From positions 106,874 to 170,873 of the forward strand of contig CAZEGD010000001.1 in NCBI GenBank assembly GCA_964512235.1: DNA of 64,000 bases, written 5' to 3'. This document shows, in pieces, positions 45,018-64,000 of this stretch. The stretch comes from an uncultured archaeon. GTDB taxonomy: Archaea; Aenigmatarchaeota; Aenigmatarchaeia; CG10238-14; SCSR01. The notes beneath the pieces were generated by a model. It was not told the origin of the DNA, ran no database searches, and saw only the letters and a list, made by a program, of their open reading frames with translations. The position numbers and the translations under genes were made by a program. The number at the start of each line of letters is the position of its first letter. Positions within the stretch are counted from its first letter, which is position 1.

Positions 45018-45024
45018 CGTTCGC

Positions 45025-45062
<38 letters not shown>

Positions 45063-45152
45063 GCCAATCGAGTGGAGTTTAAACGAGACTTGCTTTGCTG
45101 CTTCGGCAGTAAAAGTGGGCCGAGTTTCGGTTCCGCGAGAAGGGCTAAGTCG

Positions 45153-45285: not shown

Positions 45286-45344
45286 TAAACAAGGTAGCCG
45301 TACGGGAACGTGCGGCTGGATCACCTCCTTAAGATCCAAGTGTG

Positions 45345-45377
45345 CTGGTTCTGCCTCTAGGCATCAAAACTGCTGCA
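45345..45377 (+). other. 16S processing helix, 3' strand
   Basis: CTGGTTCTGCCTCTAGG-CATC-AAA-ACTGCTGCA, complementary to 43535-43567. Confidence 0.85.
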
Positions 45378-45465
45378 AAAATATTTTATTTTGACATGAA
45401 CCAGCGTGAGCTGTATACCACAGAACCGCAATATTTATATAGTGTCACTAGTCAATAGTAACGTT

Positions 45466-46092: not shown

Positions 46093-46148
46093 TTTGCGTA
46101 AAATTAGTAATCTTTAAATTTAACTTCTCATAACAAATATTAGTTCAC

Positions 46149-46221
46149 GGGCCGATAGTTCAATGGCTAGAATGCCGTCCCTGCAAGGCGGAGGTTCCGG
46201 GTTCGAGTCCCGGTCGGTCCA
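46149..46221 (+). tRNA. tRNA-Ala(TGC), the classical archaeal rRNA-spacer tRNA
   Basis: Acceptor GGGCCGA/TCGGTCC with the G3:U70 Ala identity pair. Anticodon arm CCGTC-CCTGCAA-GGCGG (C at position 33). T-arm CCGGG-TTCGAGT-CCCGG. Confidence 0.8.
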
Positions 46222-46232
46222 CTCACAATGTT

Positions 46233-46268
46233 TTGACTTTATGTGCAAGATTGACTTTAAGTGCAAAG
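46233..46268. repeat. two tandem copies of the 18-nt motif TTGACTTTAAGTGCAAGA (dyad core ACTT-T-AAGT)
   Basis: TTGACTTTATGTGCAAGA followed by TTGACTTTAAGTGCAAAG. Confidence 0.85.
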
Positions 46269-46308
46269 CTACACTACATATTAAAAATTTCTGAACGCCA
46301 AGGCTGAG

Positions 46309-46920
46309 CTATTTAGTTTGAATCTTAGGTTCTTTAATAGGATAGCACAGTTCCCTTACTATTCTTACAGAAAAGTCTTCCAACTCATTTTTGGTATGTA
46401 CAACACAACCATTGCGGACTTCGTCTTCAGAATAAAACAAAGAATAAAGCAACCTTTGAAAAGGAGGTGTGTCAAATACACCTCGCTTTTTTAATTCATA
46501 AAAATCTAAATCTCCATTTTTATCCAACAACTCATTTATTATCGCTCTCTTCTCCTTAGGCAAGACTCTGGTCACTTCCCTTATTTCTTCAAGTTGAACA
46601 CTTCTACCATACCACCATAGAAACTCACCACAGATATCAACTGTGGTTACTCCCTTAGTTTTTAACTTCTCAATAAGTTCTTCACTTTCTCTGATTTTGT
46701 ATCTCATAATTTCTGCTTCTTCCGGAACATCGAAGGGCAGTTCATCATCTCTATTTAGTAACATTATGCAATTTTTTCTTCTCCAGACTGCTTCGTACAG
46801 TCTTTTAAGATAGACATCATACTCTCCATATTTTTCTTCCATTGCACCATCTATCCAGCGTGCACTATTAACGCGGGATCCTGGATGCACTACTACAAGC
46901 AACGGCTCTTGATTTTTCAT
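46309..46920 (-). CDS. hypothetical 203-aa protein (spacer cassette 1)
   Basis: ORF only. No family recognised. Confidence 0.55.
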   Translation of the reverse strand: MKNQEPLLVVVHPGSRVNSARWIDGAMEEKYGEYDVYLKRLYEAVWRRKNCIMLLNRDDELPFDVPEEAEIMRYKIRESEELIEKLKTKGVTTVDICGEFLWWYGRSVQLEEIREVTRVLPKEKRAIINELLDKNGDLDFYELKKRGVFDTPPFQRLLYSLFYSEDEVRNGCVVHTKNELEDFSVRIVRELCYPIKEPKIQTK

Positions 46921-46993
46921 AAAAGGATAATCAAAAAATTAAAGATTTAAGTCCTTTGACAATGTTGGGATTTGAAACCACTGAAAAAAGATT

Positions 46994-47377
46994 TCACTCC
47001 CTTCGTTTCCTTTCGTCTTTAAGTTTTGTGATAAGAGAGGTCATTATTCCCAAATCAATTTCAGAAATTTTAAATTCATCTCTATGCGGGCAATCTTCAT
47101 CTAATGTAGTACAATTTTTATCTTCATCATAGATTATGGGATATAGCTTACATCCTTTTGGTCTATTTTCGTAAATCAAGCATTGTTTGCCATCATTAAA
47201 AACACATCTTCCATCGCAATTCTTTAATTGTAACCAACCATCTCTATTGACAACAAAATAATCATAGTCGAAACCCAATCCTTTTATCCGTTCAATATCT
47301 TCCTTCAATAAAGGCATTTCAGTTTCTAAGCAACACTTGATGCATTTGTGACGTATACAACATTTTTTCATATCCAT
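46994..47377 (-). CDS. YkgJ-family cysteine-cluster (CxxCxxCC-type) protein
   Basis: 127 aa. KCCIRHKCIKCC and CVFNDGKQCLIYENRPKGCKLYP match the UPF0153/YkgJ pattern. Confidence 0.7.
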   Translation of the reverse strand: MDMKKCCIRHKCIKCCLETEMPLLKEDIERIKGLGFDYDYFVVNRDGWLQLKNCDGRCVFNDGKQCLIYENRPKGCKLYPIIYDEDKNCTTLDEDCPHRDEFKISEIDLGIMTSLITKLKDERKRRE

Positions 47378-47390
47378 TCACCTGAAGGAA

Positions 47391-47408
47391 CTATGTTTAA
47401 GTGCAGAA
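47391..47408. repeat. single degenerate copy of the 18-nt motif
   Basis: CTATGTTTAAGTGCAGAA. Lies between the YkgJ start codon and its putative TATA box (TTTTTAAATT on the minus strand). Confidence 0.7.
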
Positions 47409-47482
47409 TTTAAAAAGTCAGCCAAAAATAACTTTATCTTTCAGGGTATTTATTCCTCAAAACAATGCTTACTATCAATCCT
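47396..47482. repeat. 87-nt direct repeat, copy A
   Basis: 85 of 87 nt identical to 48104-48190 by manual alignment. Covers the 3' end of the 47450-47764 ORF. Confidence 0.9.
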
Positions 47483-47764
47483 TTCCTTTACAAGCACATC
47501 AAGCAACTTTACAATCCATCTAGCCTTGCCTTTCTTCGTCAAGGCGTACAAATGCTCCTTCCTCTCTATCAACCCACAGGATTCCAGCCTCTGTAGCGTC
47601 TCTGTTAGTGTGGATGTGGACTTGAACCTTATGCCAGTCAACGCCTGCAACTGATTCCCTATGTCTACCGCCCGCAAAGGCTCTGACTTGGACAGTATCC
47701 TGAGTATGTTCCTGTTCGTCCGCTCCGCCACTACCGCCACTATATCCTTCTTGTACCTAGCCAT
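47450..47764 (-). CDS. small winged-helix DNA-binding protein (spacer cassette 2)
   Basis: 104 aa from MARYKKD. NILRILSKSEPLRAVDIGNQL...LQRLESCGLIERK is wHTH-like. Confidence 0.55.
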   Translation of the reverse strand: MARYKKDIVAVVAERTNRNILRILSKSEPLRAVDIGNQLQALTGIRFKSTSTLTETLQRLESCGLIERKEHLYALTKKGKARWIVKLLDVLVKERIDSKHCFEE

Positions 47765-47852
47765 TAACAATAATTCGGTCTCGCAAATAACGAGTTTTAT
47801 CTCGTTTAAACCGATAATAATATAACCAATCAAGAGAAAACTATAATGACAG

Positions 47853-48065
47853 GTGCATCTGGATATGGTAGACGGAGTTACCAAAGACTTCAAGAAAAGA
47901 CTTCTCAAGGATATAAGTACAAATCCTGTGTCAATTAGCGAACTTTCCAGAAAGCTGAAGGTTCGCAGAGATTTTGTGACTGGTTATTTGCAGGCACTAG
48001 AAGATATGGGAGATATTAGGCTAGTCGTGGTTGGCAGGTCTAAAGTATATCTATCGAGGAAGTGA
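47853..48065 (+). CDS. small winged-helix DNA-binding protein, divergent partner
   Basis: 70 aa. ISTNPVSISELSRKLKVRRDFVTGYLQALEDMGDI. Confidence 0.5.
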   Translation: MHLDMVDGVTKDFKKRLLKDISTNPVSISELSRKLKVRRDFVTGYLQALEDMGDIRLVVVGRSKVYLSRK

Positions 48066-48080
48066 AAAAGGCATTATTTT

Positions 48081-48116
48081 CAGATTAAAAGTGCAAGACG
48101 GACTTTAAGTGTAGAA
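48081..48116. repeat. two degenerate tandem copies of the 18-nt motif
   Basis: CAGATTAAAAGTGCAAGA followed by CGGACTTTAAGTGTAGAA. Confidence 0.65.
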
Positions 48117-48190
48117 TTTAAAAAGTCAGCCAAAAATGACTTTATCTTTCAGGGTATTTATTCCTCAAAACAATGCTTACTATCAATCCT
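48104..48190. repeat. 87-nt direct repeat, copy B
   Basis: See copy A. Covers the 3' end of the 48142-48327 ORF in a different reading frame. Confidence 0.9.
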
Positions 48191-48327
48191 GCAATAACAC
48201 CAATAGCACATGCTACTAATACCCTTTCTGGTAAAGAAAGACCCAAATTTGATAACATCCCTATCGATCCCCCAGTAACACCACCGACAACTCCTCCAAT
48301 AATACCTCCTTTTTTATTTATTTTCAT
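48142..48327 (-). CDS. glycine-zipper membrane peptide, 61 aa (spacer cassette 3)
   Basis: MKINKKGGIIGGVVGGVTGGSIGM... Trimmed to the internal ATG. Confidence 0.4.
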   Translation of the reverse strand: MKINKKGGIIGGVVGGVTGGSIGMLSNLGLSLPERVLVACAIGVIAGLIVSIVLRNKYPER

Positions 48328-48383
48328 ATTCAAACCTCTCCAAATAATAATTAAAAACCAGTGTTTAAAACTGATTGTAATTT

Positions 48384-48419
48384 TTGACTTTAAGTGCAAG
48401 ATGGAGTTTAAGTGCAAAG
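48384..48419. repeat. two tandem copies of the 18-nt motif
   Basis: TTGACTTTAAGTGCAAGA followed by TGGAGTTTAAGTGCAAAG. Confidence 0.85.
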
Positions 48420-48436
48420 CCACATTATACGAAATC

Positions 48437-48446
48437 TTTATAAATA
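48437..48446 (+). promoter_or_regulatory. candidate TATA box of an independent 23S transcription unit
   Basis: TTTATAAATA, about 390 nt upstream of the 23S processing helix. Minus-strand genes lie immediately upstream. Confidence 0.3.
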
Positions 48447-48827
48447 AGTAGGACCATTATATTTTTTACTTCGGTGTCGCTATGCAAGAGTAGAAACGCT
48501 CATTTACCCTCTGTTTAGCGATGAGCATGTGCCTTTTTCTGATGCCTTCTGTTGCATTTCGTATGCGACATGGCTGTGATGAGAGTGGACACCTTGCTAT
48601 GCTTGTAGAGGTGTGCGGTCAAACGCACGAGCGTGCTAATACTACATTCAATAGCGTATAGTTACGTTGAAGTGTAGATGCAAATCCCGATTGAACATCG
48701 TGGGTTGAAGAGTGGAAGTTGATGATTGTAGAGAAGTATCCGAGCAACCATCCCGTGGGCAATAGGATGGATTGCAGATGAGGTGCGAGCTGTCTCATAT
48801 GAAACTGTAAATAATGATACTACCATA

Positions 48828-48853
48828 GGATCAAACTGGCAATAGAGGTCTGC
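48828..48853 (+). other. 23S processing helix, 5' strand (bulge-helix-bulge)
   Basis: GGATCAAAC-TGGC-AAT-AGAGGTCTGC pairs with 51993-52018. This gives 9 bp, an AAA bulge, 4 bp, an AAT bulge and 10 bp. Confidence 0.8.
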
Positions 48854-51245
48854 TGCGCCAGCCACTTGGTGGATGGCTTGGTTCCAGACGCCGAAGAAGG
48901 TCGTAGCAAGCTGCGATAAGCCTGGGTTAGCCGCATGCGGGCTTAGACCCCAGGATCGCCGAATGCAACTAGTAGCTTTGGCTGATGCGAGAGCATTGGG
49001 AACGCGGCGAATTGAAGCATCTTAGTAGCCGCAGGAAAAGAAAACAATTGTGATACCGTGAGTAACGGCGAGTAAAAGCGGTATAGGGCAAACCGAATCT
49101 ATGCCGAAAGGCAATAGAGTTGTGGTGTTTGGACTTGTGTCTTTCCCAACCAGTTGACCGGAAATCCGCTGGGACGCGGTGCGGTAAAGGGTGATAGCCC
49201 CGTACGGGAAGACTGGGAGGAAAATGGCAAGTATCCAGAGTACTGCTCCTCGATTATGGAGTAGGAATATGCCGGGCATTAACCGGCAACCCTAAACACG
49301 TCTGGAGACCGATAGTGAAGTAGTATGATGACAGAAGGCTGAAAAGTACCGCGAAAGCGGGGTGAAAAGAATCTGAAACCAAGTTGGCAATAGTCTGGTA
49401 CGGCGCGGAAGGTGCTGCCTGGAAGGAAATGTGCGCAAGCACGAAGTACGACGGGTAGCTTACAGTGTCGTGCCATCCGTTTTGAAGAACGGGACAGGGA
49501 GTTTATTTCAGTAGTGAGGTTAAGCTGTTAAGCAGTGTAGCCGTAGCGAAAGCGACAGGTCCGTATGCGCAAGCAGTGGGACGTGGTGTGAAAGCGCCAG
49601 AAATTACTGGGATAGGACCCGAAACCAGTCGATCTAACCCTGGGTAGGATGAAGTTGCGCGAAAGCGCAATGGAGGTCCGTTACCGTTGCTGAGTCACAT
49701 ATCGCTCGGGTGACCTGGGGATAGGGGTGAAAAGCCTAACGAGACTGGTGATAGCTGGTTCCTCTCGAAATGCATCTAAGTGCAGCCTGGTCCGAGGTGT
49801 GACATGGGGTAGAGCTACTGATTGGATTGTCAAGGCCCGAAAGGGTCAGCTTTCCTGTCAAACTCCGAATCCATGCCTACCGTAGACGACCGGAGTGAGG
49901 GCTCTTGGGTTAAGCCCGAGACCCAAAAGGGAAACAACCCCAACTGAGGTTAAGGTCTCTAAATGCCGGCTAAACGAGAAAGGGAGTCTAAACTCTCAGA
50001 CAGTAGGACTGTAGGCTCAGAAGCAGCCACCAGTCAAAAAGTGCGTAACAGCTTACCTACCGAGGGTTTGGGCCCTGAAAATGGAAGAGACTAAGCCGGC
50101 TACCGATACCCCAGACTATTCTGTTGAGCAGAATAGTGGTAGAGAGGCGTCCTGCGCGGACAGAAGCTTGGGCGTAAGCTCTAGTAGACCGCGTAGGATT
50201 GAAAATCCTGCCGAAAGTAGCAGCATAGCTGGGCGAGAATCCCAGTCGCCTAAAGGATGCGGGTTTGCCAGCAATGGTTATCAACTGGCAGTTAGTCGGT
50301 CCTAACCTAAATCTTAACCGAACTTAGGGAATGGCAAAGACGTTAATATTCGTCTACCATGAAGGTACACGCGGCAACGCAAGTTAAGCGTCTGACGCTT
50401 CGGGATAAGTCAACGTAAGTCAACTATTGAAATCTGTGGAGTCTTATAACGAGGAGAAACAGATGAATGTGGAAGTAGCTCCGTGTATGCGGAGTTTGGC
50501 TGGTTCCTGGAGCCCATGAAAAGGATGCTTATCGGATCCTTCATGACCGTACCAAGAACCGACACAGGTATCCATGCTGAGAAGGCAATGGTGTGTTGGG
50601 AGAACCCAGTCTAGGGAACTCGGCAAATTAGTGGTGTACGTTCGCAAGAAACCATGCCTGTAATCTTGAACCGGGCGTCCGCATAAGCGAGGCAATCGGG
50701 AAGGGATTGCAGGTTGCAATAACTAGGGGAAAGCGTCTGTTTAACAAAAACGTAGGAGAGCGCTAATGCGAAAGCACTTGTACGCTCTCTGATGCCTGCC
50801 CAGTATCGGTGTGTTAAAACCTGTTTCAACAGGTCGAAGCCCCGGTAAACGGCGGCGGTAACTCTGACCGTCATAAAGTAGCGTAATCCCTTGTCGTTTA
50901 ATTGACGACCCGTCTGAATGGCTTAACGACTTTTCCACTGTCCCAGGCTGGGACCCAGCGAACTTGCTATTCTGGTGAATAGGCCAGAGACCTCCAGTGG
51001 GAAACGTAGACCCCGTGGAACTTTACTGCAGTTTGATGTTGTGATCCGGCTGCGATCGTATAGAGTAGATAGGACTCGTTATCAGGCTGATCCGTCAGGT
51101 GAAAGCTGAGAGGAAAGTGTAACACTATCCCTTTGTTGCTGTATCACTTACTCCTCGGAGGACAGCATTTAATGGGCAGTTCGGCTGGGGTGGTACTCCC
51201 TTGAGAATGCATCAAGGGAGCCCAAAGATCAGCTCATCGAGGTCA

Positions 51246-51337
51246 CAATAAGAGTCATAAATGATTAAACCACTCCAGATTGAGCGCTTAGGCGCTATGA
51301 TAATTGGGTGTAGCTAATGATGGGCTCTTATTGCCCC
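51246..51337 (+). other. candidate insertion of roughly 90 nt in a 23S hairpin loop about 150 nt upstream of the GGGGATAA motif
   Basis: The stem TCGAG/CTCGA normally closes a short GTCGGAAAT-type loop. Here the loop holds an AT-rich element closed by AATAAGAG/CTCTTATT. Confidence 0.45.
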
Positions 51338-51588
51338 AAAGAAATCTCGAGTAGAATGCAAGCGTAAAAGCTGGTCTGACCGTATTTCGCAAAGCGAGAA
51401 ATTCGGCTGCGAAAGCATGGGCTAGCGAGACGTCGATTGGCTTTAATGGCCGCCGATGGTATCAGAAAAGCTACCCCGGGGATAATGGAGTCGTGGCCCC
51501 CGAAAGCCCACATTGACGGGGCGCGTTGCTTCATCGTTGTCGCCTCCCCCCTTCCTGGCCGTGCACAAGCGGCCAAGGGTACAGGTGT

Positions 51589-51630
51589 CCAACATTTGCT
51601 TTGGTGCTTTGCACTGATGCATTGTACACA
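51589..51630 (+). other. candidate 42-nt insertion within the 23S A-loop (helix 92) hairpin
   Basis: CAAGGGTACAGGTGT[42 nt]TACTGGTTAAAG. Removing the 42 nt gives GGGTA-CAGG-TGTTA-CTGG-TTAAAG. The consensus is GGGTA-TGGC-TGTTC-GCCA-TTTAAAG. Confidence 0.5.
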
Positions 51631-51992
51631 TACTGGTTAAAGGGGGACGCTAGGTGGGTTCAGAACGTTGTGAGACAGTTCGGTCGCTATCTACTGGAGG
51701 TGTCGGTTGTCTGACCGGAAGGAAGGGAAAGTACGAAAGGAACACCCTCCCGTGGCCTCTAGTCTATCGGTTGTTCGAAGCATGGCCGAGCAGCCACGCC
51801 ATAGCGGATAAGAGCTGAAAGCATCTAAGCTCGAAACCGCCCGGAAAAATAGACAACCATTCACAAAGCTGACTGGCAACAGCCGGCGGAGTGACGAAGG
51901 CACTCGTAGACTACGAGTTTGATAGAACAGGGGTGTAAGCATCAAGCGTTCGCGCGAGGTGTTCAGCCCGCTGTTACTAATCGCCTGAGGTG

Positions 51993-52018
51993 GCAGACCT
52001 CTGCTAAAAGTTTGATCC
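51993..52018 (+). other. 23S processing helix, 3' strand
   Basis: GCAGACCTCT-GCTA-AAA-GTTTGATCC. Confidence 0.8.
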
Positions 52019-52297: not shown

Positions 52298-52354
52298 AAC
52301 TAGAATTTCTAAAAAGGATTTAAGCTTAACTATTGTTAGTAGTTAGTGATAACT

Positions 52355-52834
52355 ATGAAGATACAGAAAGCGAAGGACTTGAAAGAAATCATAGAAAATA
52401 AAGGTAGGAAGATTATTTTACCGTATATTCTAACAACTAGCGAATGTGATAATGGAGACGAATCTTTGGTTGTGTATGGTGGAATAGAGATTTCAAGCGA
52501 AAGTATGAATTATGATAAGCTTCTTTCAAGTGAAAGTTTGGATTCTTTAATGTCCAACCTACCTTCTGGACATAGACGCCCAGGAAATCAAATTGAGGCT
52601 CTAACGATTGTAAAGAATGGGATGAAAAAATATGTGGGTGAAATTGGAGAAGACATTTATCATCATATGTCAGAAGAGCATCCCAAAGAGAAAATAGACT
52701 TAAAGAAAGTCCAAGAAGTTTCAAAACCTGATTTCAATGCAGATGATGCAGATTTTATCGATGATGAAGACATAGAAATTTTATTCAAGCTTGGGCATTA
52801 TAAGGTAGTCTTATCTCAGGCTCTCAAGAAATGA
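52355..52834 (+). CDS. hypothetical acidic 159-aa protein
   Basis: ATG at 52355 (MKIQKAKD). No family recognised. Confidence 0.5.
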   Translation: MKIQKAKDLKEIIENKGRKIILPYILTTSECDNGDESLVVYGGIEISSESMNYDKLLSSESLDSLMSNLPSGHRRPGNQIEALTIVKNGMKKYVGEIGEDIYHHMSEEHPKEKIDLKKVQEVSKPDFNADDADFIDDEDIEILFKLGHYKVVLSQALKK

Positions 52835-52869: not shown

Positions 52870-52962
52870 ATGAAGTACTGCAATAAATGCAACCAGAACT
52901 TTAGTGACAAGAACAAGAAATGTCCGAATTGCGGAACTAAGCTAGTAAGACTGAGCTACTAA
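52870..52962 (+). CDS. possible 30-aa zinc-ribbon peptide
   Basis: Hand-found ORF MKYCNKCNQNFSDKNKKCPNCGTKLVRLSY. Confidence 0.3.
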   Translation: MKYCNKCNQNFSDKNKKCPNCGTKLVRLSY

Positions 52963-53043
52963 AGACTATTTGTTGAGCCATTCCTCTAGGATTATCAGTT
53001 TATATTGTCCAGAATTCAAAATTATTATTAGTAACAATCAATA

Positions 53044-53298
53044 GTGGTTATCATTAATAGTAAGACCGATGTAAAAAATAAGATTGTAAAGATTCTTTCT
53101 CAGCATCCGGAAGGTTTGACTATACAGTACTTAGCCGATGATATTGGTGTTAGCAGGCAGACTGTGCGCGCGTATATTCTAGAGCTTAAAGGATCGGGCA
53201 TAGTTCTCAGACGACGCGTGGGCTCGGCTACTTTGCATTATCTAAAGAGTCTGATGGAGAAATTTAGTAAAAATTTTGGTAGAGGTTTTAAGAGCTGA
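53044..53298 (+). CDS. small winged-helix transcription regulator heading the surface island
   Basis: 84 aa, GTG start. ILSQHPEGLTIQYLADDIGVSRQTVRAYILELKGSGIV. Confidence 0.6.
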   Translation: MVIINSKTDVKNKIVKILSQHPEGLTIQYLADDIGVSRQTVRAYILELKGSGIVLRRRVGSATLHYLKSLMEKFSKNFGRGFKS

Positions 53299-53303
53299 CA
53301 AAA

Positions 53304-56300
53304 ATGAAAGTTGAAGAGGCATTAAAAGAAACCATAGCAGAAAGGAAAGAAAGGGAGAAGCGAAAGCAGAGAATTAAAGCCGTTGCATTATCCATTCTAT
53401 TGATAACTTTAACTCTGATTGTTTTCAGGTATACCACAATAACAGGGATGATTACAAGATTAATAACAAAGCCTGAGCATGTGCAAGATTTGTCTATTTT
53501 GATTAATGAAAATCAAACCTATGATTGGATCTTAAGTGAAGTGTGCACAGATGCAAATTGCTATATCAACTCTGTCAGAATATCTGGAAAGATTATTGGA
53601 AATGATGGTTATGCAAAAGTGTATTTGGAAGATATTGGGGGAAACCGCTATCTCATTTTTGACAAAAGCATTGAAGAAAGTGGAAAATCTCCACTTACAG
53701 GAATGGGTGGGTTGCTGGAAATTCCAGAGCATATCAATCAAACCGTAAATGAAACTACAACTACTACTATCCCGAATCAAACAACTACGACTATAGTGCC
53801 TAATCAAACAACCACGACAACCACACCAAACGAGACCACAATGACAACGATTGAAACTACAACTACGACAACAACTTCTACAACTACTATTCCGAATCAA
53901 ACAACTACTACTTCAACCACATCTACTACCACTTCCACAACTACAACTTCTATGACAACTACTACGACACTACCAATAGAAATTGATTTTAATAATGAAT
54001 GTATAGAAACTTGCGATTTATCTGGAAAGAGTTTGAATGAAAGTTCCTTTATTTTAATTTTTGAACTGAGTGAAGGAGTTACTATTAACATCGATACCAT
54101 CAGTTACAGTTGGCAGTTGGAAAAAGAGATAGCTCTTCCTAAGAAAGCCAAAATAGAAAAGTCTGTAGTGAAAGATTCCAAGGGAAGAACGATTAATTCC
54201 ATACTTATATTGAAGGATTCGCGAACTAAGGATTTGATAGAAAGTATCTCCACAGATTCTGAGGCAACAATTGATATGGGTGAATATGACATTGAAATGT
54301 TACCTGAGCAGCATCCTGTCAAAAAACTAAGTTTAAAAAATGTCAGGGTGAACAAGAAACTCGAAAAGTTAGTTGATTTGGATGATGTGCCCGAGAGCAT
54401 CCCGACACCTGAAGATGTCAATGAATGGACGGAAGTCTATGCTATCGATCCCACAGAGCTCGATTTTGCAGAAGCGGAAGTGACTGTGACAGCCAAAGGT
54501 AATGCTTTGTATAAGTGTAAAGACTGGGATTTTGCTGCGCAAAGCTGCTACGGAGAATGGGTTAAAATAATGGAAATGACTCCAGGAGAAAATTATACAT
54601 TTACTTTAACACAGGAAGACCCTGGGTTTGGTGAAGCTAACATCACAATAATCAATGTCCGGAGCTATCCTACACTTTATGGGAATTGGACTGTCAGGTT
54701 TAACACTATTGGTACTGCTGATTTAACTGTTACAGCTGTCAATGGCACTGGATTTGGAAGAGATATAGAATTTTTGGAGCTGAGATGCGGAGATAATGTT
54801 TTAACGACTGAACTTACTGATGGTGTGGCTTTTGTTGAAAATTACAGCTGCAACGAAACTGGTCATGAAATCAGTAAAGTTCTGATAGCTGGCAAACATA
54901 CGCTAGAGTTTAGATTTGGAGATGATGTTGAATATGCTTACAATGATGTTGTAGTATACGAGACTGGTATAGTCCAAAATGTCAACGGCTGGACTCTAGT
55001 AGCTCTAGACACAAGTTACACAAATCCTGTTGTTATAGTTACAGGTCAAGAAGGTGCAGATATAAGTATGGATGTTGAGGCGTCTAGGCCAATGATAAGG
55101 AATGTCAGCTCCAATAGTTTTGAGGTGCAGGTTGTAAATGACGGTACTAATGTTGTGGAAGAAGATGTTGGCTATATAGTAATGGAAGAAGGTCATTGGA
55201 CAGTAGATGGAGTTGAAGTTGAGGCAGGAACTTATAGTGTAAGCTCAGCTGCTAGTACTCAAACAGTTACTTATGCTGAAACTTTCCCTGGGAACACTGT
55301 TGTGATTGATACTCTTCAAACAGAATGTTCAGAGACAGTTTCTTCAAGATATATAGAGAATAGTATGGGTTCAAGCTCTTTTCAAGTTTGGTGGGAAGAC
55401 TTCTCTGGTCTTACTAGCGAAACCAATTCTTGGAGTTGTGGAGCTGCAACAGCAGGATACATAGCAGTAGAATTAGGAAACTCAAGCAGTATATTCGAAA
55501 GTGGAATATATGATGAGTGTACTGCTGATCCTGGAAGTAGCGATTGGTGCAGTATCACCTTTAGCAATTCATATGCTTCAACACCCATCTTATTTGTTAA
55601 TCCTCATGATGTAGCAGGAAGTGATTCAGCAATTGTGGGAAGAAGAAGTTTAAGCACTACTGGGGTTGACTTAAGATCGACTGAATCAAGAACAGCAGAT
55701 GCTGAGCAAGATCACGCAACAGACGACATGCCTTGGATAGTTTGGACAGATGTGGATGTAGGCGCTCCGCCGACCTATTTTAATAATTCCACAAATACGA
55801 CAGTCGCAGGTCAGCCGACTTTATTCAGCTTGAATTGGACGAGCGAGAAGGGATTGAGTGGATATATTTTCAGCTTATATAATGGAAGTGATTACCAACA
55901 AGAAAGTTGTTCTGGAACGGCAAAAGACTGTAGTGAACACGACAATGAAGACGATTGTGAGTTATGTGGTTGTACTTGGTCAGGCTCAGATTATAACCAA
56001 ACAGTTATGGATTTGAACCCAGAAGCAAGATGGCTATTGAATGGAGATGGGACTGACTCTTCTGGTAATGGACATAATAGTGATGCTGAAACAACTCCAG
56101 TTTTTGTAGATAATATAATTCCAAACAACGATACAGCACAGTGTGGAGATTTTGTTCCAAATGATGAATACCAAATCCCAGACAGTCCTAGAATTAACAC
56201 TGGAACTGGCTACGCAGGAACAGAAAGGGCATTATCTGTGTGGATTATAGCTGACACGATAGATACGACAGGAAATGGGAGAGCAATCTGGACAGAAGGT

Positions 56301-58643
56301 GGTGGAAGTAACTCATTGAATATGTATACTTTTAATAATGGAACTCATGATAACATATACTGCAACGCAGTAGAAAGTGCTAATTATGATTATGTGTATA
56401 CACAAATAAATGAGGGAGAGTTATTACATGTCGGATGTATGTTTAATTTTGCTGGTGGAAGAATAGACATGTATATCAATGGAACATTAGTAAGTTCTGA
56501 TACATCATTGGTAGTTGGAACATCTTTAGCTTCTCACAGTGGAGATTGTGCAATAGGTGGTCAAGACTCCAATACAGACAATCATTTAGGAGCTTCAATG
56601 AGTGCTAATTTTGATGGTAGGATAGCAGATTTAGTATATTGGAGTGATGGTTCTGTCATAACACAACAAAACTTCTCAGGCATCTATCAAGCAGGTATAG
56701 ATACAGCTGGAGGCTGCTCGGGGACTCAAGATTCATGCGCTATAGGAACTTGTAATGCAACTTGTAGCTGTACGCATACTCCATATCTAGAATTTCACAA
56801 TGATACTTGGACAGCTTTTTCTGGAACAACTTGGTCTAACGTAACAAAGATAGTCAATTCAACAACAGGAGCAACTATAAAGTGGTGTGTTTATGCGAAT
56901 GACACGAATGATAGATGGAATGGAACTTCTTGCCAAAATCCATTCAGCTATATTACAACAGCTGGTGTTTCAAACAATGCACCTGTCCTTACTTCTGTAG
57001 ACGTAACAACGTCTTCACCAAACACTACAGAAACTTTGGATTGTGGAGCAAAAGGGTATGATGTTGACGCAGGTGAAGTGCTGAAAACGAATTTCACATG
57101 GTATCGTGATACTGGAACAGACTATGTTGCATGGACATCGGACGATGAGACAGAAGTAGCGACGACTAATGACACATATGTGAATACATCTGCAACTGGT
57201 GACATTGAATCAGCAGATACTGCTAAAACTTACAAATTCATCTGTCAGGCCACGCTTTACGACGATGGAGGAGCTTCAGATATTATGAACTCCAGTGCAG
57301 TAACCGTTGTCAACTCTCCTCCAAATCCAGACTCGAGTTGGAGCCCAGGGACTACACATGATCCCAATCAGGACTTTACGTGGTCGGAAGGGAGTGATGA
57401 TGACGGTGATGGAGTGACTTCTTATCTATGCATAGATGATGATTCGAGTGGAAGGGATAATGAAGTCTGTGATGCCTACTCCAACAGTGGTTTAGATTCT
57501 CCTGTCGAAGATGTTACTTTAACCTACGATGGAGCGAGTAAAACATATTATGGAAGATTGACAGCAACTGATGGTCAGGCCAACTCCACAGATTATGATT
57601 TCACATTCACTTTGACAAACGCTCAGCCATCCGCACCTTCTGCTGCTTACCTCGACGGGCAGACTACAAACGATACAACGCCTACTATAACTTTCACTAA
57701 AGGTACAGATAGTGATACAAGCCCGGTAGACACAGTAACACAGTATATTTCAGTAGACAGTTCAGGCTATACCGATTCAGGCGACACTTATACAACATCG
57801 GGCGACATAAATCAATTCACAATTGACCCTGATTTGAGCGATGGTACTTATTATGTCAGAGAATGGACAGACGATGGGACAGGCTCATCTAACACACGCT
57901 CGGACAATTACGAATATACTTTCACAGTTACATCGGTGATAAGAATATATTCCATAACAATCGAGCCAGATGAAGGCGATCCAGGCATAGTAGTTGACCC
58001 GCTAGCAGATTTGAACAAGACTGTCAACGTAACTGTAGTTGTTGCGAACTCGACCACTATTGATACATGTGAAATAAGAATTTTCAATGCAACATCAAGC
58101 TATGCTAATCCCGTATTTCAGTATATTGATGGGACTGTGCAAAACTGTGGTACAATGTGTGAATGTTTTAAAGAATGGGGTATGGAATATTGGAGGAATG
58201 ATGGATCTTGGAATGTGTCTGTTGATATCAATGTAACCAATGGACCTAGCAACTTCACCTCTCAGAATTTCACATACAATGCATTAACGTCGTTTGATAT
58301 AAACACTTCTACTATTACATTCGGCGGCATCCCGGGACAGACTGTGAACTCGAGCGACGCATATCCGTTACAAATCAAAAATACTGGGAACCAGATACTT
58401 GACTTTAGCTTGAATGGCTCTGACTTCATTGGGTTGGGCGATGCCAGCTATGTGGTGAGGGTAAATAATGCAACTTATAACGAAAGTGTTACCGGGGAAT
58501 TTAGGCAACTTACAGACGACTACTATCTGGCATATTCCAATACTGTTGGTAGTGGTTTTGTAAATGTGTGGTTCCGTGCATATTTGCCAGTGGGTTTCAT
58601 AGAGCAAGGTTACCAAGACGTTATAGAAGTTAAAGGTGAATAG
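53304..58643 (+). CDS. giant (1779-aa) membrane-anchored surface protein: Thr-rich stalk, Ig/PKD-like beta-sandwich repeats, LamG/ConA-like lectin domain
   Basis: N-terminal signal-anchor helix (IKAVALSILLITLTLIVF) and IPNQTTTT repeats. LNGDGTDSSGNGHN...DGRIADLVYWS is LamG_3-like. FTWSEGSDDDGDGVTSY is PKD-like. Very many N-x-S/T sequons. Confidence 0.85.
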   Translation: MKVEEALKETIAERKEREKRKQRIKAVALSILLITLTLIVFRYTTITGMITRLITKPEHVQDLSILINENQTYDWILSEVCTDANCYINSVRISGKIIGNDGYAKVYLEDIGGNRYLIFDKSIEESGKSPLTGMGGLLEIPEHINQTVNETTTTTIPNQTTTTIVPNQTTTTTTPNETTMTTIETTTTTTTSTTTIPNQTTTTSTTSTTTSTTTTSMTTTTTLPIEIDFNNECIETCDLSGKSLNESSFILIFELSEGVTINIDTISYSWQLEKEIALPKKAKIEKSVVKDSKGRTINSILILKDSRTKDLIESISTDSEATIDMGEYDIEMLPEQHPVKKLSLKNVRVNKKLEKLVDLDDVPESIPTPEDVNEWTEVYAIDPTELDFAEAEVTVTAKGNALYKCKDWDFAAQSCYGEWVKIMEMTPGENYTFTLTQEDPGFGEANITIINVRSYPTLYGNWTVRFNTIGTADLTVTAVNGTGFGRDIEFLELRCGDNVLTTELTDGVAFVENYSCNETGHEISKVLIAGKHTLEFRFGDDVEYAYNDVVVYETGIVQNVNGWTLVALDTSYTNPVVIVTGQEGADISMDVEASRPMIRNVSSNSFEVQVVNDGTNVVEEDVGYIVMEEGHWTVDGVEVEAGTYSVSSAASTQTVTYAETFPGNTVVIDTLQTECSETVSSRYIENSMGSSSFQVWWEDFSGLTSETNSWSCGAATAGYIAVELGNSSSIFESGIYDECTADPGSSDWCSITFSNSYASTPILFVNPHDVAGSDSAIVGRRSLSTTGVDLRSTESRTADAEQDHATDDMPWIVWTDVDVGAPPTYFNNSTNTTVAGQPTLFSLNWTSEKGLSGYIFSLYNGSDYQQESCSGTAKDCSEHDNEDDCELCGCTWSGSDYNQTVMDLNPEARWLLNGDGTDSSGNGHNSDAETTPVFVDNIIPNNDTAQCGDFVPNDEYQIPDSPRINTGTGYAGTERALSVWIIADTIDTTGNGRAIWTEGGGSNSLNMYTFNNGTHDNIYCNAVESANYDYVYTQINEGELLHVGCMFNFAGGRIDMYINGTLVSSDTSLVVGTSLASHSGDCAIGGQDSNTDNHLGASMSANFDGRIADLVYWSDGSVITQQNFSGIYQAGIDTAGGCSGTQDSCAIGTCNATCSCTHTPYLEFHNDTWTAFSGTTWSNVTKIVNSTTGATIKWCVYANDTNDRWNGTSCQNPFSYITTAGVSNNAPVLTSVDVTTSSPNTTETLDCGAKGYDVDAGEVLKTNFTWYRDTGTDYVAWTSDDETEVATTNDTYVNTSATGDIESADTAKTYKFICQATLYDDGGASDIMNSSAVTVVNSPPNPDSSWSPGTTHDPNQDFTWSEGSDDDGDGVTSYLCIDDDSSGRDNEVCDAYSNSGLDSPVEDVTLTYDGASKTYYGRLTATDGQANSTDYDFTFTLTNAQPSAPSAAYLDGQTTNDTTPTITFTKGTDSDTSPVDTVTQYISVDSSGYTDSGDTYTTSGDINQFTIDPDLSDGTYYVREWTDDGTGSSNTRSDNYEYTFTVTSVIRIYSITIEPDEGDPGIVVDPLADLNKTVNVTVVVANSTTIDTCEIRIFNATSSYANPVFQYIDGTVQNCGTMCECFKEWGMEYWRNDGSWNVSVDINVTNGPSNFTSQNFTYNALTSFDINTSTITFGGIPGQTVNSSDAYPLQIKNTGNQILDFSLNGSDFIGLGDASYVVRVNNATYNESVTGEFRQLTDDYYLAYSNTVGSGFVNVWFRAYLPVGFIEQGYQDVIEVKGE
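53748..53969 (+). repeat. in-frame Thr-rich low-complexity repeat (IPNQTTTT units) encoding the stalk
   Basis: Repeated ATCCCGAATCAAACAACTAC-like units, roughly aa 149-222 of the giant protein. Confidence 0.85.
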
Positions 58644-58700
58644 GATAAATGCACTTATACTTTAAAATCCAATTTAGATTGAGGAGCTGAGTGATATAAA

Positions 58701-59708
58701 ATGAAACCGCTCTTATTGTTGGGGATGATTGCCCTTTGCGTACTTGCAGTCTATGGAGTTACAACTTATTTTGGACCGATGTCAGAATTTTTAAGCGGTC
58801 TGGCAATCGCATCAAAGACTGGTACATTGGCCATCGGGAATGCAGCACCGGTTATAAACAACATATACATTAATGGAAGCATAACTACTGCTACGCCTAC
58901 AGATGTTGTAATAGACCCAACGTCAAATACGTCAATTACATTGGATGTAACCGCTCAGGTAACTGATAACAACGGTGATTGTGATACATTTAAAATAAAT
59001 AATGGTACTGCATATCTATGCGAAGGTGTAAGTGTGAGGTGTGACGCTAACACTGCCAACCACACTATTTATATGAATTACAGCTCAGATGCAGGGTTGT
59101 GGGGCACAGGTAACAAAGAGTGCAATATTACAAGCAATATAACATCAACTACAATTGCCGAAAAGGTGTGGTTCTTTGAAAGGAATGGTTCTTGGACAAT
59201 AAATATCAGTGTGACAGATGGTACGGACACTGTCGTGCTTACTAAGAATTTTACCGTCAATGAATTAAGATCTATTACTTATCCGAGTTCGGGGAGTACG
59301 GTAGATTTCGGTAATCCAACAGTTAATCAATGGAATGAGGGACTTGGTTCAAGTATATTGCAGAATTCTGGGAACATAATATCTGACGTCAGATGGAATG
59401 CATCAAACTTCACATCGGGTTCAAATGTGATCCATGTGAATGGCACAACTCTTGTAATCGACGATGACGGGACACGTGCAAGTGATGTTGGTAGTGAGAC
59501 CGAGGTAGAGCTAAGTGGTGGTGACCATTCGTCTCAAGTCTACTTTAATTACACCACTGGGGTGGTAAGATGTCCTAATTCACATTGTGGAGGCACTACT
59601 AATGCCACCATAGACATATATTGGCATCTTTACATTCCGGCTGGAACACCAGTAGGTACTTATACAAATGTGATCCAAATGGAAAATATAGATCACTATC
59701 CGGGTTGA
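58701..59708 (+). CDS. secreted two-beta-sandwich protein, paralogue of the giant protein's C-terminal module
   Basis: Signal peptide MKPLLLLGMIALCVLAVYG. Shares the patterns ..NGSW.(I/V).(I/V)S(V).. and ..N(S/T)GN.I.D.. with 57934-58640, and both end in YLP(A/V)G..(V/Q)G(T/Y). Confidence 0.75.
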   Translation: MKPLLLLGMIALCVLAVYGVTTYFGPMSEFLSGLAIASKTGTLAIGNAAPVINNIYINGSITTATPTDVVIDPTSNTSITLDVTAQVTDNNGDCDTFKINNGTAYLCEGVSVRCDANTANHTIYMNYSSDAGLWGTGNKECNITSNITSTTIAEKVWFFERNGSWTINISVTDGTDTVVLTKNFTVNELRSITYPSSGSTVDFGNPTVNQWNEGLGSSILQNSGNIISDVRWNASNFTSGSNVIHVNGTTLVIDDDGTRASDVGSETEVELSGGDHSSQVYFNYTTGVVRCPNSHCGGTTNATIDIYWHLYIPAGTPVGTYTNVIQMENIDHYPG

Positions 59709-59728
59709 TTTGAAAGGAGTAAGATAAA

Positions 59729-60325
59729 ATGAAAATGAAGTATGCGGGAACAACAATTCTGATATTTTTAATTGCAAATATGATGCTTGTGTCCTTAGTA
59801 CAAGCTATAGGGGTGACAAGGCCGGTACCGTTGGCTGTAGAACTGCTCCGTGGCGAGTCACAGGTCTTCAGATTCCAGGTACAGGCCACGACTTCAACAC
59901 TAGACCAGTTATGTAGTTACTCCATTAGCGGAGTCAGTCCACTTGTAGTAGACTTTGAAGAAGAAAGTGGCGTAACTGTAAAAGCCGGTGGAAAGGAAAA
60001 TGTCTACTTTACGATTATTGTACCAGAAGACGCTCCAATAAGAGGGTATCTGGGTAAATTAGCTGTTAGATGTGGTGATAAAAGAGAAGCTAAGGGAATT
60101 ACCGGATCTGCGGTCTATTCGACAATCAATTCACCGTTTAGCGTAGATGTTGTCTCCTTTAGAGAAGGTGAGAAACCAGAAATGGAAATTCCAGAGGGAC
60201 CTGCCGGTATATCAACAGAAATAGTAATTGTTATCATAATAGCTGCTGTAATATTAATTGCTGGTGTCTATTATTGGAGCAAAAAAAGTAGAAAGAAAAG
60301 GGTTAAGAGAAGGCCTAAGAAATAG
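59729..60325 (+). CDS. surface protein with signal peptide, one beta-sandwich and a C-terminal TM anchor
   Basis: MKMKYAGTTILIFLIANMMLVSLVQA. C-terminal IVIVIIIAAVILIAGVYYW followed by KKSRKKRVKRRPKK. Confidence 0.7.
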   Translation: MKMKYAGTTILIFLIANMMLVSLVQAIGVTRPVPLAVELLRGESQVFRFQVQATTSTLDQLCSYSISGVSPLVVDFEEESGVTVKAGGKENVYFTIIVPEDAPIRGYLGKLAVRCGDKREAKGITGSAVYSTINSPFSVDVVSFREGEKPEMEIPEGPAGISTEIVIVIIIAAVILIAGVYYWSKKSRKKRVKRRPKK

Positions 60326-61736
60326 GAATATAGTTCTAGTTGTAGCTGTAATTTTCATAGTTTTTGTTTTTACCTATTTTGTACGTATTGAGAGAAGCAT
60401 TACTTCTATGGTATTCCAAGGCTTTTTTATAACAGTTGGGAGACTGACTCAGAGTATACAGGTGTCCCTAACTATTCTTACGAACTATTTATACGATTTA
60501 GTAGTGGACTGCGATCAGGGAAGTGTTTATGTGGGAAATAGCGTATCTGCAGATATAACAATTAAGAATAATGGGAATTATGAGGGGGATATGACTGTCG
60601 AATGGTGGATTGAAGATACGGGTGCTACAAGATATACTTCTGCATCAACTGTGGTAAATATAAGTTCAGGGTACATGTGGAGAGCTACAAAAAGTCTAAT
60701 TGTGCCATCTACTACCGATGTAGGTATATACTATTTTAAAACAAACATTTCTACGGACGACTATTCTCTATCTGCACATGACAGTTTTGAAGTGTTGAAC
60801 GGTGTGACAACTACACCTCCACCAGTTGGAGGAGGTGGGATAGGATCACCTTCTGTAGAGACGACTACTACTATACCCGAAGATGTAGCCGAGGAAGTCG
60901 GATCAATTGAGATATTTTATCCACCGCATGTCATAGTAGTGACCAATTCGACAAAAGAAGTTAATATTCTAGTTAAAAATTCCGGTACTTTGGTTCTAGA
61001 CAAATTAAAATTACTTCTTCGAGGTATAGAACTTGACTGGGTTTCCGTCTATCCAGAAGAGATGATTCTCCGAGAGGGGGAGTCAAACAGCTTTAGAATT
61101 AATTTCTCCGTTCCCATAGATGTGACTTTGAGAGAGTACTCTATCAATGTAATTATAGAAAGTGAAGAGTTAGAGGAAAGACTCGACTTGACTTTTAGTG
61201 TAATAGAAACTCTTAAGAGGGAAGAATTTGAAGAAAAGAAGTCGGAACTAAGAAAAACGATTCAAACGCTTTCAGAGCAATTGGAATCTTTTGATGAGGA
61301 AAGGGAGGATGTAAGATCGGTTAAAGATTTATTGACATCTGCCAGTGAGAGAATATTGCTTGCTGAAATATATGTGGAAGATGAAAATCTGGAAATATGT
61401 AGTGAATTGATATATGAGGCTGAAGGTCTTGTAGTTCTATCCGAAAATGCTTTTAACAATATTAAAAACGTAAAGTCTAAGTCATTCTTGCCAGTAATGC
61501 TTCTTTCATTTACAGTGGCATCAACATCATTAGTTTCAATATTAATCATTAGGAAAGTCGGAGCGGGTAAGCTATACAAAAGACTGATGCTTTCTGTAAA
61601 GATTAAAAAGAGTAAAAGGGAAGAGGTAGCTACTATAATGAAGCTATTAAAAACTCTGGAAAGAGAAGTGGAGAACGATAAAATTAAACTGAAGGGTCTG
61701 AAAAGAAAGATATCAAAATCTCTAAAGTCTGGTTAG
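60258..61736 (+). CDS. membrane protein with CARDB-like and NEW3-like beta-sandwich domains, an acidic coiled coil and a C-terminal TM helix
   Basis: ADITIKNNGNYEGDMTVEWW is CARDB-like. VNILVKNSGTLVLDKLKL...DWVSVYP...REYSINVIIES is NEW3-like. The TTG/GTG start overlaps the upstream gene by more than 60 nt. Confidence 0.65.
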   Translation: MLVSIIGAKKVERKGLREGLRNRNIVLVVAVIFIVFVFTYFVRIERSITSMVFQGFFITVGRLTQSIQVSLTILTNYLYDLVVDCDQGSVYVGNSVSADITIKNNGNYEGDMTVEWWIEDTGATRYTSASTVVNISSGYMWRATKSLIVPSTTDVGIYYFKTNISTDDYSLSAHDSFEVLNGVTTTPPPVGGGGIGSPSVETTTTIPEDVAEEVGSIEIFYPPHVIVVTNSTKEVNILVKNSGTLVLDKLKLLLRGIELDWVSVYPEEMILREGESNSFRINFSVPIDVTLREYSINVIIESEELEERLDLTFSVIETLKREEFEEKKSELRKTIQTLSEQLESFDEEREDVRSVKDLLTSASERILLAEIYVEDENLEICSELIYEAEGLVVLSENAFNNIKNVKSKSFLPVMLLSFTVASTSLVSILIIRKVGAGKLYKRLMLSVKIKKSKREEVATIMKLLKTLEREVENDKIKLKGLKRKISKSLKSG

Positions 61737-61774: not shown

Positions 61775-62173
61775 ATGGGTATGAAAACAGAACCCATTAC
61801 ACTGAGTATGACACGTAAATTGTATAAGGTTAGAGATTATTTGGAAGCTAATTATGTGTCTAGAGTTATAGAATACATGCGTTTGAATAGTGAGCATAGG
61901 GCGCTTTCAAAGGCTACAAATATTGAATTGAATGAACCGAAAACCAACGACTTAAGCTATTTCTCTTCTGAACTGATTGGAGATTTTGCGACAATTGTAC
62001 CTCTATTTGTAAGTGCTGCGAATGATTCACTACTTATGAAACTCATTGATGGTTCCATAGCTCTAATTTTTCAGCTGTATTTGGCAAATACATTTAGGAA
62101 ATACAAAAAGAAGCTCTTCGATGACGAATTCGGTAGAATGAAGAGTCTAGCGAACCGTATTACAATGCCATGA
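61775..62173 (+). CDS. hypothetical 132-aa protein
   Basis: ORF only, with one or two hydrophobic segments. Confidence 0.4.
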   Translation: MGMKTEPITLSMTRKLYKVRDYLEANYVSRVIEYMRLNSEHRALSKATNIELNEPKTNDLSYFSSELIGDFATIVPLFVSAANDSLLMKLIDGSIALIFQLYLANTFRKYKKKLFDDEFGRMKSLANRITMP

Positions 62174-63459: not shown

Positions 63460-63657
63460 ATGAACAAACAATACGAAGATGGAGACCCATGTCCATTTTG
63501 TAAGAAAGGCATTTTGCATCCTTCTGGTTTGAGATGGGATGTAGAAAAGCCTAAGATTGAAAGTGGAGAAGCTAGAAGAGAGCGAACAAAATTCGTGTGC
63601 GATACTTGCGGCAAAGACCCTTCTAACTTTAAGCTCGTTCTTAAGGACAAAATTTAA
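63460..63657 (+). CDS. zinc-ribbon protein, 65 aa
   Basis: CPFCKKG...CDTCGK. No family recognised. Confidence 0.45.
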   Translation: MNKQYEDGDPCPFCKKGILHPSGLRWDVEKPKIESGEARRERTKFVCDTCGKDPSNFKLVLKDKI

Positions 63658-64000
63658 GTTCCACCAGGATCAACAAAAGTATACAAAACAGTTCCGAAAA
63701 ACTTAGCCGTAATTATCGGCACTTCTTTTATTCTTGTAAAGAGAGATTTGCTTACTACAGCATTGATGATAACCCATAGATTATATAGGAGGGCAGAAAA
63801 CACAAAATAGAACAGTCTGACGGTATAGTTCTTTGATGTTGTTTTGGCTCTAAAACTATTTTTCATTCTATAACTTGTCTCAATACCCCATCTCTGACTA
63901 TAGAGTCTGAAAAGGTTCTGAGCATTATCGTCTCTTAACAGTCCAAAATTAGAAGCGAAAACTCGCTTTTTACCCTCTCGGTCTTCAACTATAGCTAGCT
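63654..64000 (-). mobile_element. C-terminal part of an IS4/IS5-superfamily DDE transposase (ORF open to the right edge)
   Basis: Hand translation upstream of the track ORF gives ...LFRLYSQRWGIETSYRMKNSFRAK..., the Y-x2-R-x3-E...K signature around the third catalytic residue. Confidence 0.7.

Follow-up and report, generated by a model that had tools for sequence, protein, structure and literature searches.

A conserved gene cassette of DPANN archaea encoding a mosaic giant and three smaller putative surface proteins

Five adjacent genes lying at positions 53044-61736 of an archaeal DNA stretch raise the question of whether they make up a system or only happen to lie next to each other and, if they are a system, what it might do. 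The stretch analyzed, 64,000 nucleotides (nt) in all, is called the window here, and it can be taken as archaeal because archaeal small subunit (SSU) and large subunit (LSU) ribosomal RNA (rRNA) genes are present in it; its relatives locate it within DPANN. The five plus-strand open reading frames (ORFs), labeled g1 to g5 (Table 1), start just past the LSU rRNA gene. The original prediction, made from the sequence alone, described them as co-directional genes with short gaps and one overlap and with no recognizable enzyme among them. The ORF coordinates agree, with gaps of 5 nt between g1 and g2, 57 nt between g2 and g3 and 20 nt between g3 and g4, and with an out-of-frame overlap of 62-68 nt between g4 and g5; scans with Pfam, NCBIfam, PADLOC and PHROGs found no enzyme domain in g1-g5. 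Judged by the gene order of related loci, the five genes are a real, conserved cassette of DPANN archaea and not a chance adjacency.

Conservation of the gene arrangement

Related loci were fetched through the genomic contexts of g3 homologs, through a g3-seeded genome scan, and through an independent metagenome scan seeded with the constant C-terminal module of the g2 giant (Cmod), and custom profiles were applied to them. The g3-seeded genome scan returned three Aenigmatarchaeota, one "Micrarchaeota", one Pacearchaeota and two further metagenome-assembled genomes. An adjacent triad consisting of a g3-like gene, a g4-like gene and a gene in the g5 position was found in 13 lineages (the window, L007, L011, L014-L019, L021, L022, L029 and L030). 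A giant gene carrying Cmod lay immediately upstream in 10 of the 13, and also on the short contigs L023, L025 and L028. Two g3-g4 pairs were present in L007 and L029, and the order giant-g4-g3(-g4) was seen in L025, L028 and L030. In nine of ten complete loci, g4 and g5 genes taken together are as many as g3 genes and Cmod taken together. The out-of-frame g4/g5 overlap recurs as well (L007, L014-L017, L021, L022, L029 and L030) and measures approximately 41 nt in most loci; in the window, the same DNA (60258-60325) encodes both the Lys/Arg tail of g4 and the basic N-terminus of g5. Conservation of this overlap suggests translational coupling. The genes flanking the cassette vary between loci. 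Contigs nearly identical to the window occur in the samples JGI 3300031651 and SRR9705735.

At the level of gene content, then, the defining constant parts of the cassette are Cmod, g3, g4 and g5. The original prediction had treated the genes as one unit and had named adjacency never repeated in relatives as the observation that would speak against this; recurrent synteny in 13 divergent lineages supports the unit. Its further description of the locus as a lineage-specific apparatus matching no named system holds in its second half. The cassette is spread across several DPANN phyla and not restricted to one lineage, and it maps to no named system: none was matched in Pfam, NCBIfam, PADLOC or PHROGs, and no description of the cassette was found in the literature searched.

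Constant and variable parts of the encoded proteins

The module that links the giants to the cassette is short relative to the giants themselves. Cmod has about 240 amino acids (aa), and the giants in L007, L015, L016, L018, L019 and L021-L030 carry it at their extreme C-terminus with 46-73% identity. These Cmod-bearing giants range from 1204 to 5478 aa and are mostly unrelated to g2 along their length. Among 27 other proteins that share modules with g2, the last ~240 residues of g2 were present in one only, P0002. On these alignments, Cmod is the cassette-specific part of the giant, and the LamG and immunoglobulin-like (Ig) parts are shuffled modules that also occur in giants without the cassette.

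The g3 protein was predicted to be a paralog of the C-terminal module of the giant, and three comparisons agree. BLASTP matched g3 to the g2 C-terminus (E 2e-4), a g3 hidden Markov model (HMM) matched g2 (E 1.5e-8) and the other giants (E 3e-9 to 7e-7), and hhalign aligned g3 with Cmod over 207 columns (hhalign value 96.8%, E 2.2e-10). By this evidence g3 is a free-standing paralog of the entire two-domain Cmod. Its layout is a signal helix, a conserved N-terminal segment and then the Cmod-type two-domain module, and its seven homologs are 34-89% identical. The segment between the signal helix and the first domain, T-G-Q-L-x-I-G-N, is strongly conserved, with G41, G46 and N47 invariant, and the alignment shows that Cmod lacks it. 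An AlphaFold2 (AF2) model of the g3 monomer was poor (mean predicted local distance difference test score, pLDDT, 52.7) and left this segment unplaced. Searches with the g3 profile against PDB sequences gave nothing below E 0.29, and g3, g4, g5 and Cmod had no match in Pfam, NCBIfam or PDB sequences. A conserved Y-W-H-L in g3, aligned with Y-F-R-A-Y-L in Cmod, led us to consider g3 as a WxL protein; this was rejected, as there was no profile match and the motif is missing from Cmod. The g3-like gene of L016 (1910-2866) is broken into ORFs of 79 and 217 aa, which reflects a frameshift, pseudogenization or misassembly.

The g4 protein was modeled well (pLDDT 90.8). A signal helix (residues 4-20) precedes a single beta-sandwich (36-141), and a Pro-rich linker leads to a transmembrane (TM) helix (163-189) and a C-terminal Lys/Arg tail; signal helix, sandwich, TM helix and basic tail are laid out just as had been predicted. 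The g4 family comprises 125 representatives (50% clustering, E<=1e-3), nearly all of them 180-200 aa long and of this common layout, and its alignment contains two invariant Cys in the Ig domain. A Pfam scan of 56 members matched no family consistently, the g4 profile had no significant match among PDB sequences, and profile-profile comparison found g4 and g3 to be unrelated. Glycosylation sequons (N-x-S/T) separate the two proteins further. There are 15 in g3 against 7 expected, and g3 and Cmod stand at 2-3 times expectation; g4 has none, and its family is depleted (0.3 against 0.95 expected). This contrast is as expected if g3 and Cmod are the exposed part and g4 is the membrane-proximal or interface part.

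In g5, an N-terminal TM helix precedes two Ig domains of E-set type with a Pro/Gly/Thr linker between them; next comes an acidic helical segment, and a second TM helix leads to the basic tail. Both hydrophobic helices and the acidic stretch are visible in the sequence itself, in keeping with the TM helix of the original prediction; the domain names given there fared less well. CARDB (PF07705) scored 21.0 bits on aa 80-150, below its cut-off of 22.7 (E 4e-4), which hints at an E-set Ig fold and no more. NPCBM_assoc/NEW3 (PF10633) had no match on g5 and was sub-threshold (21.0 against 24.4 bits) only in P0030, the single close homolog of g5 (39% identity), in which Ig_VWA7 passes (28.3 against 27). 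The acidic helical insert is also present in P0030. The proteins in the g5 position form a loose modular family. An N-terminal helix is followed in them by two to four Ig domains, some detectably g4-like by profile, and then by a second TM helix and a basic tail. BLASTP found no similarity between g5 and the g5-position proteins of L007 and L011. Kinship appears at the profile level, mostly through an N-terminal domain that is absent from the g5 of the window. A genome scan with the g5 alignment returned no relatives, and the g5 profile had no significant match among PDB sequences. In L007, the g5-position gene is followed by a gene (13085-14275) for a 396-aa, extremely Glu/Arg/Lys-rich, predicted coiled-coil protein with no counterpart in the window.

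A short motif, (I/L)-(T/S)-G-(F/M/H/L), was noticed after the N-terminal hydrophobic helix of the giants, g3 and the g5-type proteins in L007-L030 and in the window, where it lies within 53379-53460, 58701-58850 and 60330-60440. The g4 protein has instead a plain A-x-G|V-T-R-P site. The motif could represent a signal of its own for processing or anchoring.

The winged-helix assignment of g1 was confirmed, with Pfam matches above cut-off to HTH_11 (42.9 bits, cut-off 25, E 4.6e-11) and HTH_24 (29.0 bits, cut-off 21.9, E 8e-7). In five other loci, a gene homologous to g1 (phmmer E 1e-31 to 3e-6) directly adjoins or overlaps g3 or the gene of a large surface protein: in L027, L029 and L030 it overlaps the start of the giant, in L023 it sits between the giant and g3, and in L003 it lies upstream of a gene for a 616-aa protein. 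The g1 protein is presumed to be the regulator of the cassette. In L019, an unrelated 83-aa ORF occupies the same position before the giant and has, by eye, a winged-helix-like pattern. The L003 gene belongs to a second, minus-strand cluster (15339-18724) near P0030, in which the g1-type protein (67 aa) and the 616-aa protein are accompanied by a 419-aa NEW3/g4-like protein; this cluster is possibly related to the cassette, in reduced form.

The g2 giant is a mosaic. Both its N-terminal hydrophobic segment and its Thr-rich stalk, as predicted, can be read from the sequence, and the former (following a charged stretch of 25 residues) would serve as a signal peptide or signal anchor. Pieces of the remainder were found by BLASTP in 26 other proteins of 1000-3000 aa. 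Two such modules, aa 226-444 and aa 444-549, are both present in many proteins of this size and had no Pfam match when scanned as a segment. More than 15 giants that are otherwise unrelated carry the second (window 54633-54950), only ~105 aa long, at 60-80% identity, and such conservation is unusually strong for the inside of hypervariable proteins. The module at aa 550-814 resembles the 5478-aa giant of L007 (28% identity, E 3e-13) and gave a sub-threshold hint of H_lectin. Further along, P0026 and P0007 have in one piece an Ig-like domain whose two halves lie apart in g2 (aa 822-919 and 1164-1263), and the Cys-rich segment and LamG domain that separate them in g2 are therefore a nested insertion.

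Pfam and NCBIfam scans of the whole 1779-aa protein matched nothing, and the predicted LamG domain was recovered only segment-wise. When aa 960-1145 were scanned alone, Laminin_G_3 (PF13385) scored 31.8 bits against a cut-off of 27.6 (E 1.9e-7), and this stretch aligns to the Laminin_G_3 region of the homolog P0003. The prediction of very many sequons is likewise borne out (52 against 27 expected from shuffles). The PKD label was not: no PKD match was found in the whole protein or in ten segments, and the sole hint of Ig/PKD-like repeats was a sub-threshold match to Big_13 (E 0.011). Pfam scans of whole and segmented g2 contained no protease or nuclease domain. The original prediction had named a match of the giant to a well-characterized S-layer or adhesin family with known partners as a result that would speak against it; Pfam, NCBIfam and PDB sequences gave none, PDB sequences had nothing significant for g2, and no curated S-layer family in Pfam or NCBIfam matched any of g2-g5.

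Table 1. Coordinates of the cassette genes, of segments within g2 and of the upstream box, given as positions in the window
Feature	Position	Strand	Basis
g1, 84-aa winged-helix protein	53044..53298	+	ORF list, Pfam
g2, 1779-aa mosaic giant surface protein (putative)	53304..58643	+	ORF list
g2 aa 26-41, N-terminal hydrophobic helix	53379..53426	+	read from sequence
g2 aa 145-225 (approx.), Thr-rich N-Q-T/N-E-T stalk	53736..53978	+	read from sequence
g2 aa 226-549, two modules common to many giants	53979..54950	+	BLASTP map
g2 aa 550-814, module in common with L007 giant	54951..55745	+	sequence comparison
g2 aa 822-1263, split Ig-like domain	55767..57092	+	halves contiguous in homologs
g2 aa 976-1114, LamG/concanavalin-A-like lectin domain	56229..56645	+	Laminin_G_3
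g2 aa 1537-1779, constant C-terminal two-domain module (Cmod)	57912..58640	+	homology across giants
g3, 335-aa Cmod-type module protein	58701..59708	+	ORF list, homologs
g4, 198-aa Ig + TM protein	59729..60325	+	ORF list, AF2 model
g5, 492 aa from 60258 (490 aa from GTG 60264 in public call)	60258..61736	+	ORF list
TTTATAT box, possible archaeal TATA element	52999..53005	+	read from sequence

The TTTATAT box lies 45 nt upstream of the g1 start and is a possible candidate for a TATA element serving the whole five-gene unit. Between 52000 and 62300, no intergenic run of six or more T was found; the single such run (60423) is inside g5. Two flanking ORFs (52346-52834 and 61775-62173) were considered as members of the unit and rejected, as neither has homologs in any related locus. 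Between the upstream 162-aa ORF and g1, at 52870-52962, there is a 30-aa mini-ORF with a CxxC...CxxC zinc-ribbon pattern (MKYCNKCNQNFSDKNKKCPNCGTKLVRLSY). A phage or defense origin was also considered and is unsupported by PHROGs or PADLOC, which returned for the five proteins only generic HTH matches for g1 and a weak match of KwaA (E 6e-4) to the N-terminal hydrophobic region of g5.

Elsewhere in the window, the SSU rRNA match within 43571-52000 spans 1759 nt against a model of 1478 positions and probably contains insertions. A distance of 3.5 kb, in which tRNA-Ala (46149-46222) and minus-strand ORFs (46309-47908) lie, separates the SSU and LSU genes. Rfam tRNA matches at 41745-41869 (125 nt) and 23241-23344 (104 nt), with no ARAGORN call, are probably intron-bearing tRNAs. 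A minus-strand ORF truncated at the window end (63654-63998) contains ...RWGIETSYRMKNSFR, a stretch that by eye resembles a transposase motif, and it may be a transposase-like fragment.

Possible functions of the cassette

The reading that we favor, and to which we give about an even chance, is that the cassette is a conserved DPANN operon for a modular, non-covalently assembled surface adhesion complex. Under this docking model, the giant, g3, g4 and g5 would all be exported by Sec. The membrane-anchored g4 and g5, with unglycosylated Ig domains near the membrane, would be the receptors for Cmod-type modules, and docking on them would keep both the giant and g3 on the cell. The variable, heavily N-glycosylated part of the giant, with its LamG domain, would project outward and bind glycans or other surfaces, and g3, as an adaptor, spacer or competitor, would take up a site of the same type. 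The g1 protein would repress or activate the operon from the upstream promoter region. We infer the contact between the parts, the adhesive role, the export and the regulation. In favor of the model are the recurrent synteny, the tie of Cmod to the cassette and its paralogy with g3, the matched gene numbers and the paired g3-g4 duplications, the persistent g4/g5 overlap, the sequon contrast, the modeled g4 fold together with the g4-like domains of g5-position proteins, the location of the g1 homologs, the LamG domain and the parallel with WxL clusters.

Several observations weigh against this model. The Cmod giants of the P0002 lineage (L001/L002) and of L026 are followed by an HTH-like and a ParA-like gene and by no cassette, L017 has the triad with no adjacent giant, and L012 has a g3-like gene alone. 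The g5 of the window is related only weakly to most g5-position proteins, and its close homolog P0030 is not adjacent to g3 or g4. The poor g3 model counts here as well, and the surface location, the glycosylation and the co-transcription of these proteins are themselves presumptive. Finally, the N-terminus of g2 may be an uncleaved anchor, in which case the giant would already be membrane-bound and docking through its C-terminus would need another rationale.

An alternative explanation is that the genes encode physically independent envelope proteins, for example S-layer-associated proteins or a cell-wall scaffold, that are linked only by a regulator and a promoter. All four proteins are predicted to be exported or membrane-bound and carry generic Ig-like domains, and the exceptions to synteny just listed are consistent with such independence. 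We nevertheless consider it unlikely. A shared promoter does not explain why only Cmod giants are linked to g3 and g4, why g3 copies exactly Cmod, why g3 and g4 are duplicated as a pair, or why the g4/g5 overlap persists across phyla, and the lack of any S-layer family match argues in the same direction.

Slightly less probable still is a strand-complementation fiber, in the manner of chaperone-usher pili or archaeal threads, in which the conserved N-terminal segment of g3 would link its subunits into a head-to-tail chain. The giant would then be the tip adhesin, its g3-like C-terminal module able to accept a strand and unable to donate one; g4 would be a membrane-tethered PapD-like chaperone priming g3, or a terminator, and g5 an assembly platform. 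The architecture of the giant fits this picture, since FimH too consists of a variable part and a C-terminal domain paralogous to the small subunits FimG and FimF, and Cmod lacks precisely the most conserved segment of g3, the one left unplaced in the monomer model. The sequon-rich g3 also resembles the glycosylated thread subunit (PMC9715654). A Foldseek search with the g4 model found the pilus chaperones FimC, FaeE, Caf1M and PapD (E 5e-5 to 1e-4). However, the best match was the PapD-like/ASH domain of CEP192 (E 1e-6), GH123 N-terminal domains score as well as the chaperones, MSP domains also match, and the TM-scores were 0.34-0.43. As modeled, the fold of g4 is a generic PapD/E-set Ig fold (PapD/ASH-type) that alone provides no evidence for chaperone function. 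Furthermore, g4 has one domain where chaperone-usher chaperones have two and is anchored by a TM helix, and no usher-like protein was found in the window or the related loci. With the unreliable g3 model, Foldseek gave nothing below E 0.014; chaperone-usher pilins, TasA and the CFA/I tip adhesin were listed, all at E > 0.01 and thus not significant, and there is no sequence similarity to solved pilins or to the thread subunit. The duplicated g3-g4 pairs suit 1:1 complexes at least equally well. If such a fiber does exist, it would be an archaeal, usher-less counterpart of chaperone-assisted strand-complementation fibers and a molecular candidate for DPANN-host tethers and filaments.

Least probable, in our judgment, is a transient aid to export, folding or sorting, in which Cmod would be a C-terminal sorting domain (a role like that of the C-terminal domain in type IX secretion) and g4 and g5 transient extracytoplasmic factors: giants with otherwise unrelated sequences do share Cmod as their constant C-terminal domain, the fold of g4 is PapD-like, and g4 and g5 are predicted to be membrane-tethered, but the loci examined contain no protease, sortase-like enzyme, ATPase or channel, and g3 would be a cargo made of the sorting domain alone.

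Comparison with known systems

Whichever mechanism applies, the docking model and its rivals concern a previously unannotated multi-gene surface system of DPANN archaea, whose function is proposed here, and three of its protein families (g3/Cmod, g4 and g5-type) are without an entry in Pfam, NCBIfam or PDB. More than one further giant hypothetical protein, the cassette provides a defined and conserved set of parts across several DPANN phyla. Cmod and the g4 family can be used as genome markers, and the proteins are targets for interaction assays, antibodies and structural work. DPANN archaea live attached to other cells. Cryo-electron tomography has visualized DPANN attachment organelles whose proteins were stated to be unknown (PMC11420986). 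The cassette is a testable candidate for attachment to surfaces or hosts.

For g2 itself, the comparison is with other giants. LamG-bearing giant surface proteins are known from DPANN archaea, the nanohaloarchaeal SPEARE-type giants being one example. Like these, g2 is very large, mosaic and predicted to be exported, carries a lectin-type domain and comes from a small-genome archaeon, and its modules are common to many such giants, several of which have Laminin_G_3. It differs from them in that the cassette is defined by Cmod and three partner genes, whereas the module-sharing giants other than P0002 lack Cmod, and in having no protease or nuclease domain.

The archaeal thread of Sulfolobus acidocaldarius (Saci_0406, with its paralog Saci_0405) is built from a Sec-exported, heavily N-glycosylated beta-sandwich subunit whose gene lies beside that of the paralog and those of small membrane proteins of unknown role (PMC9715654). 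The sequon-rich and presumably exported g3 is similarly encoded beside a paralog and small membrane proteins. Unlike the cassette, the thread locus contains no giant adhesin, and the structure and sequence searches with g3 described above did not connect it to the thread subunit. Chaperone-usher pili (FimH/FimG/FimC/FimD) offer a second parallel, in a two-part adhesin with a C-terminal domain that is a paralog of the small subunits and in a co-encoded PapD-like Ig fold, here that of g4. They differ in that there is no usher candidate, no outer membrane and no sequence similarity, and in that the PapD-like domain of g4 is single and TM-anchored.

Closest in logic, by analogy and not by homology, is the Gram-positive WxL cluster, which encodes a large protein bearing a module at its C-terminus, a small protein consisting of the module only, and a TM-anchored Ig protein that binds the module (PMC10599100; also PMC1534035). 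The module-binding protein, WxLIP, is composed of DUF916, DUF3324 and a TM helix (PMC10599100, PMC1534035), and one WxL gene is known to have a regulator made of an HTH only (PMC13522541). The cassette has the same three kinds of protein, in the giant with Cmod, g3 and g4, and P0129, a multi-domain relative of g4, has a match to WxLIP_PGBD. The differences are nonetheless considerable. At E<=1, neither g2 nor g3 matched a WxL profile, g3, g4 and g5 matched none of WxL, WxLIP_PGBD and WxLIP_HBD, and 55 members of the g4 family had no WxLIP match. Where WxLIP has two Ig domains g4 has one, the module of Cmod and g3 is a two-domain, Cys-containing and sequon-rich one, the cassette has an extra two-TM protein in g5, and the giants are far larger (1200-5478 aa). 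Peptidoglycan, the target of WxL, is not expected in these archaea. If the analogy is correct, archaea and Firmicutes would have reached the logic of the WxL-type cluster with unrelated proteins.

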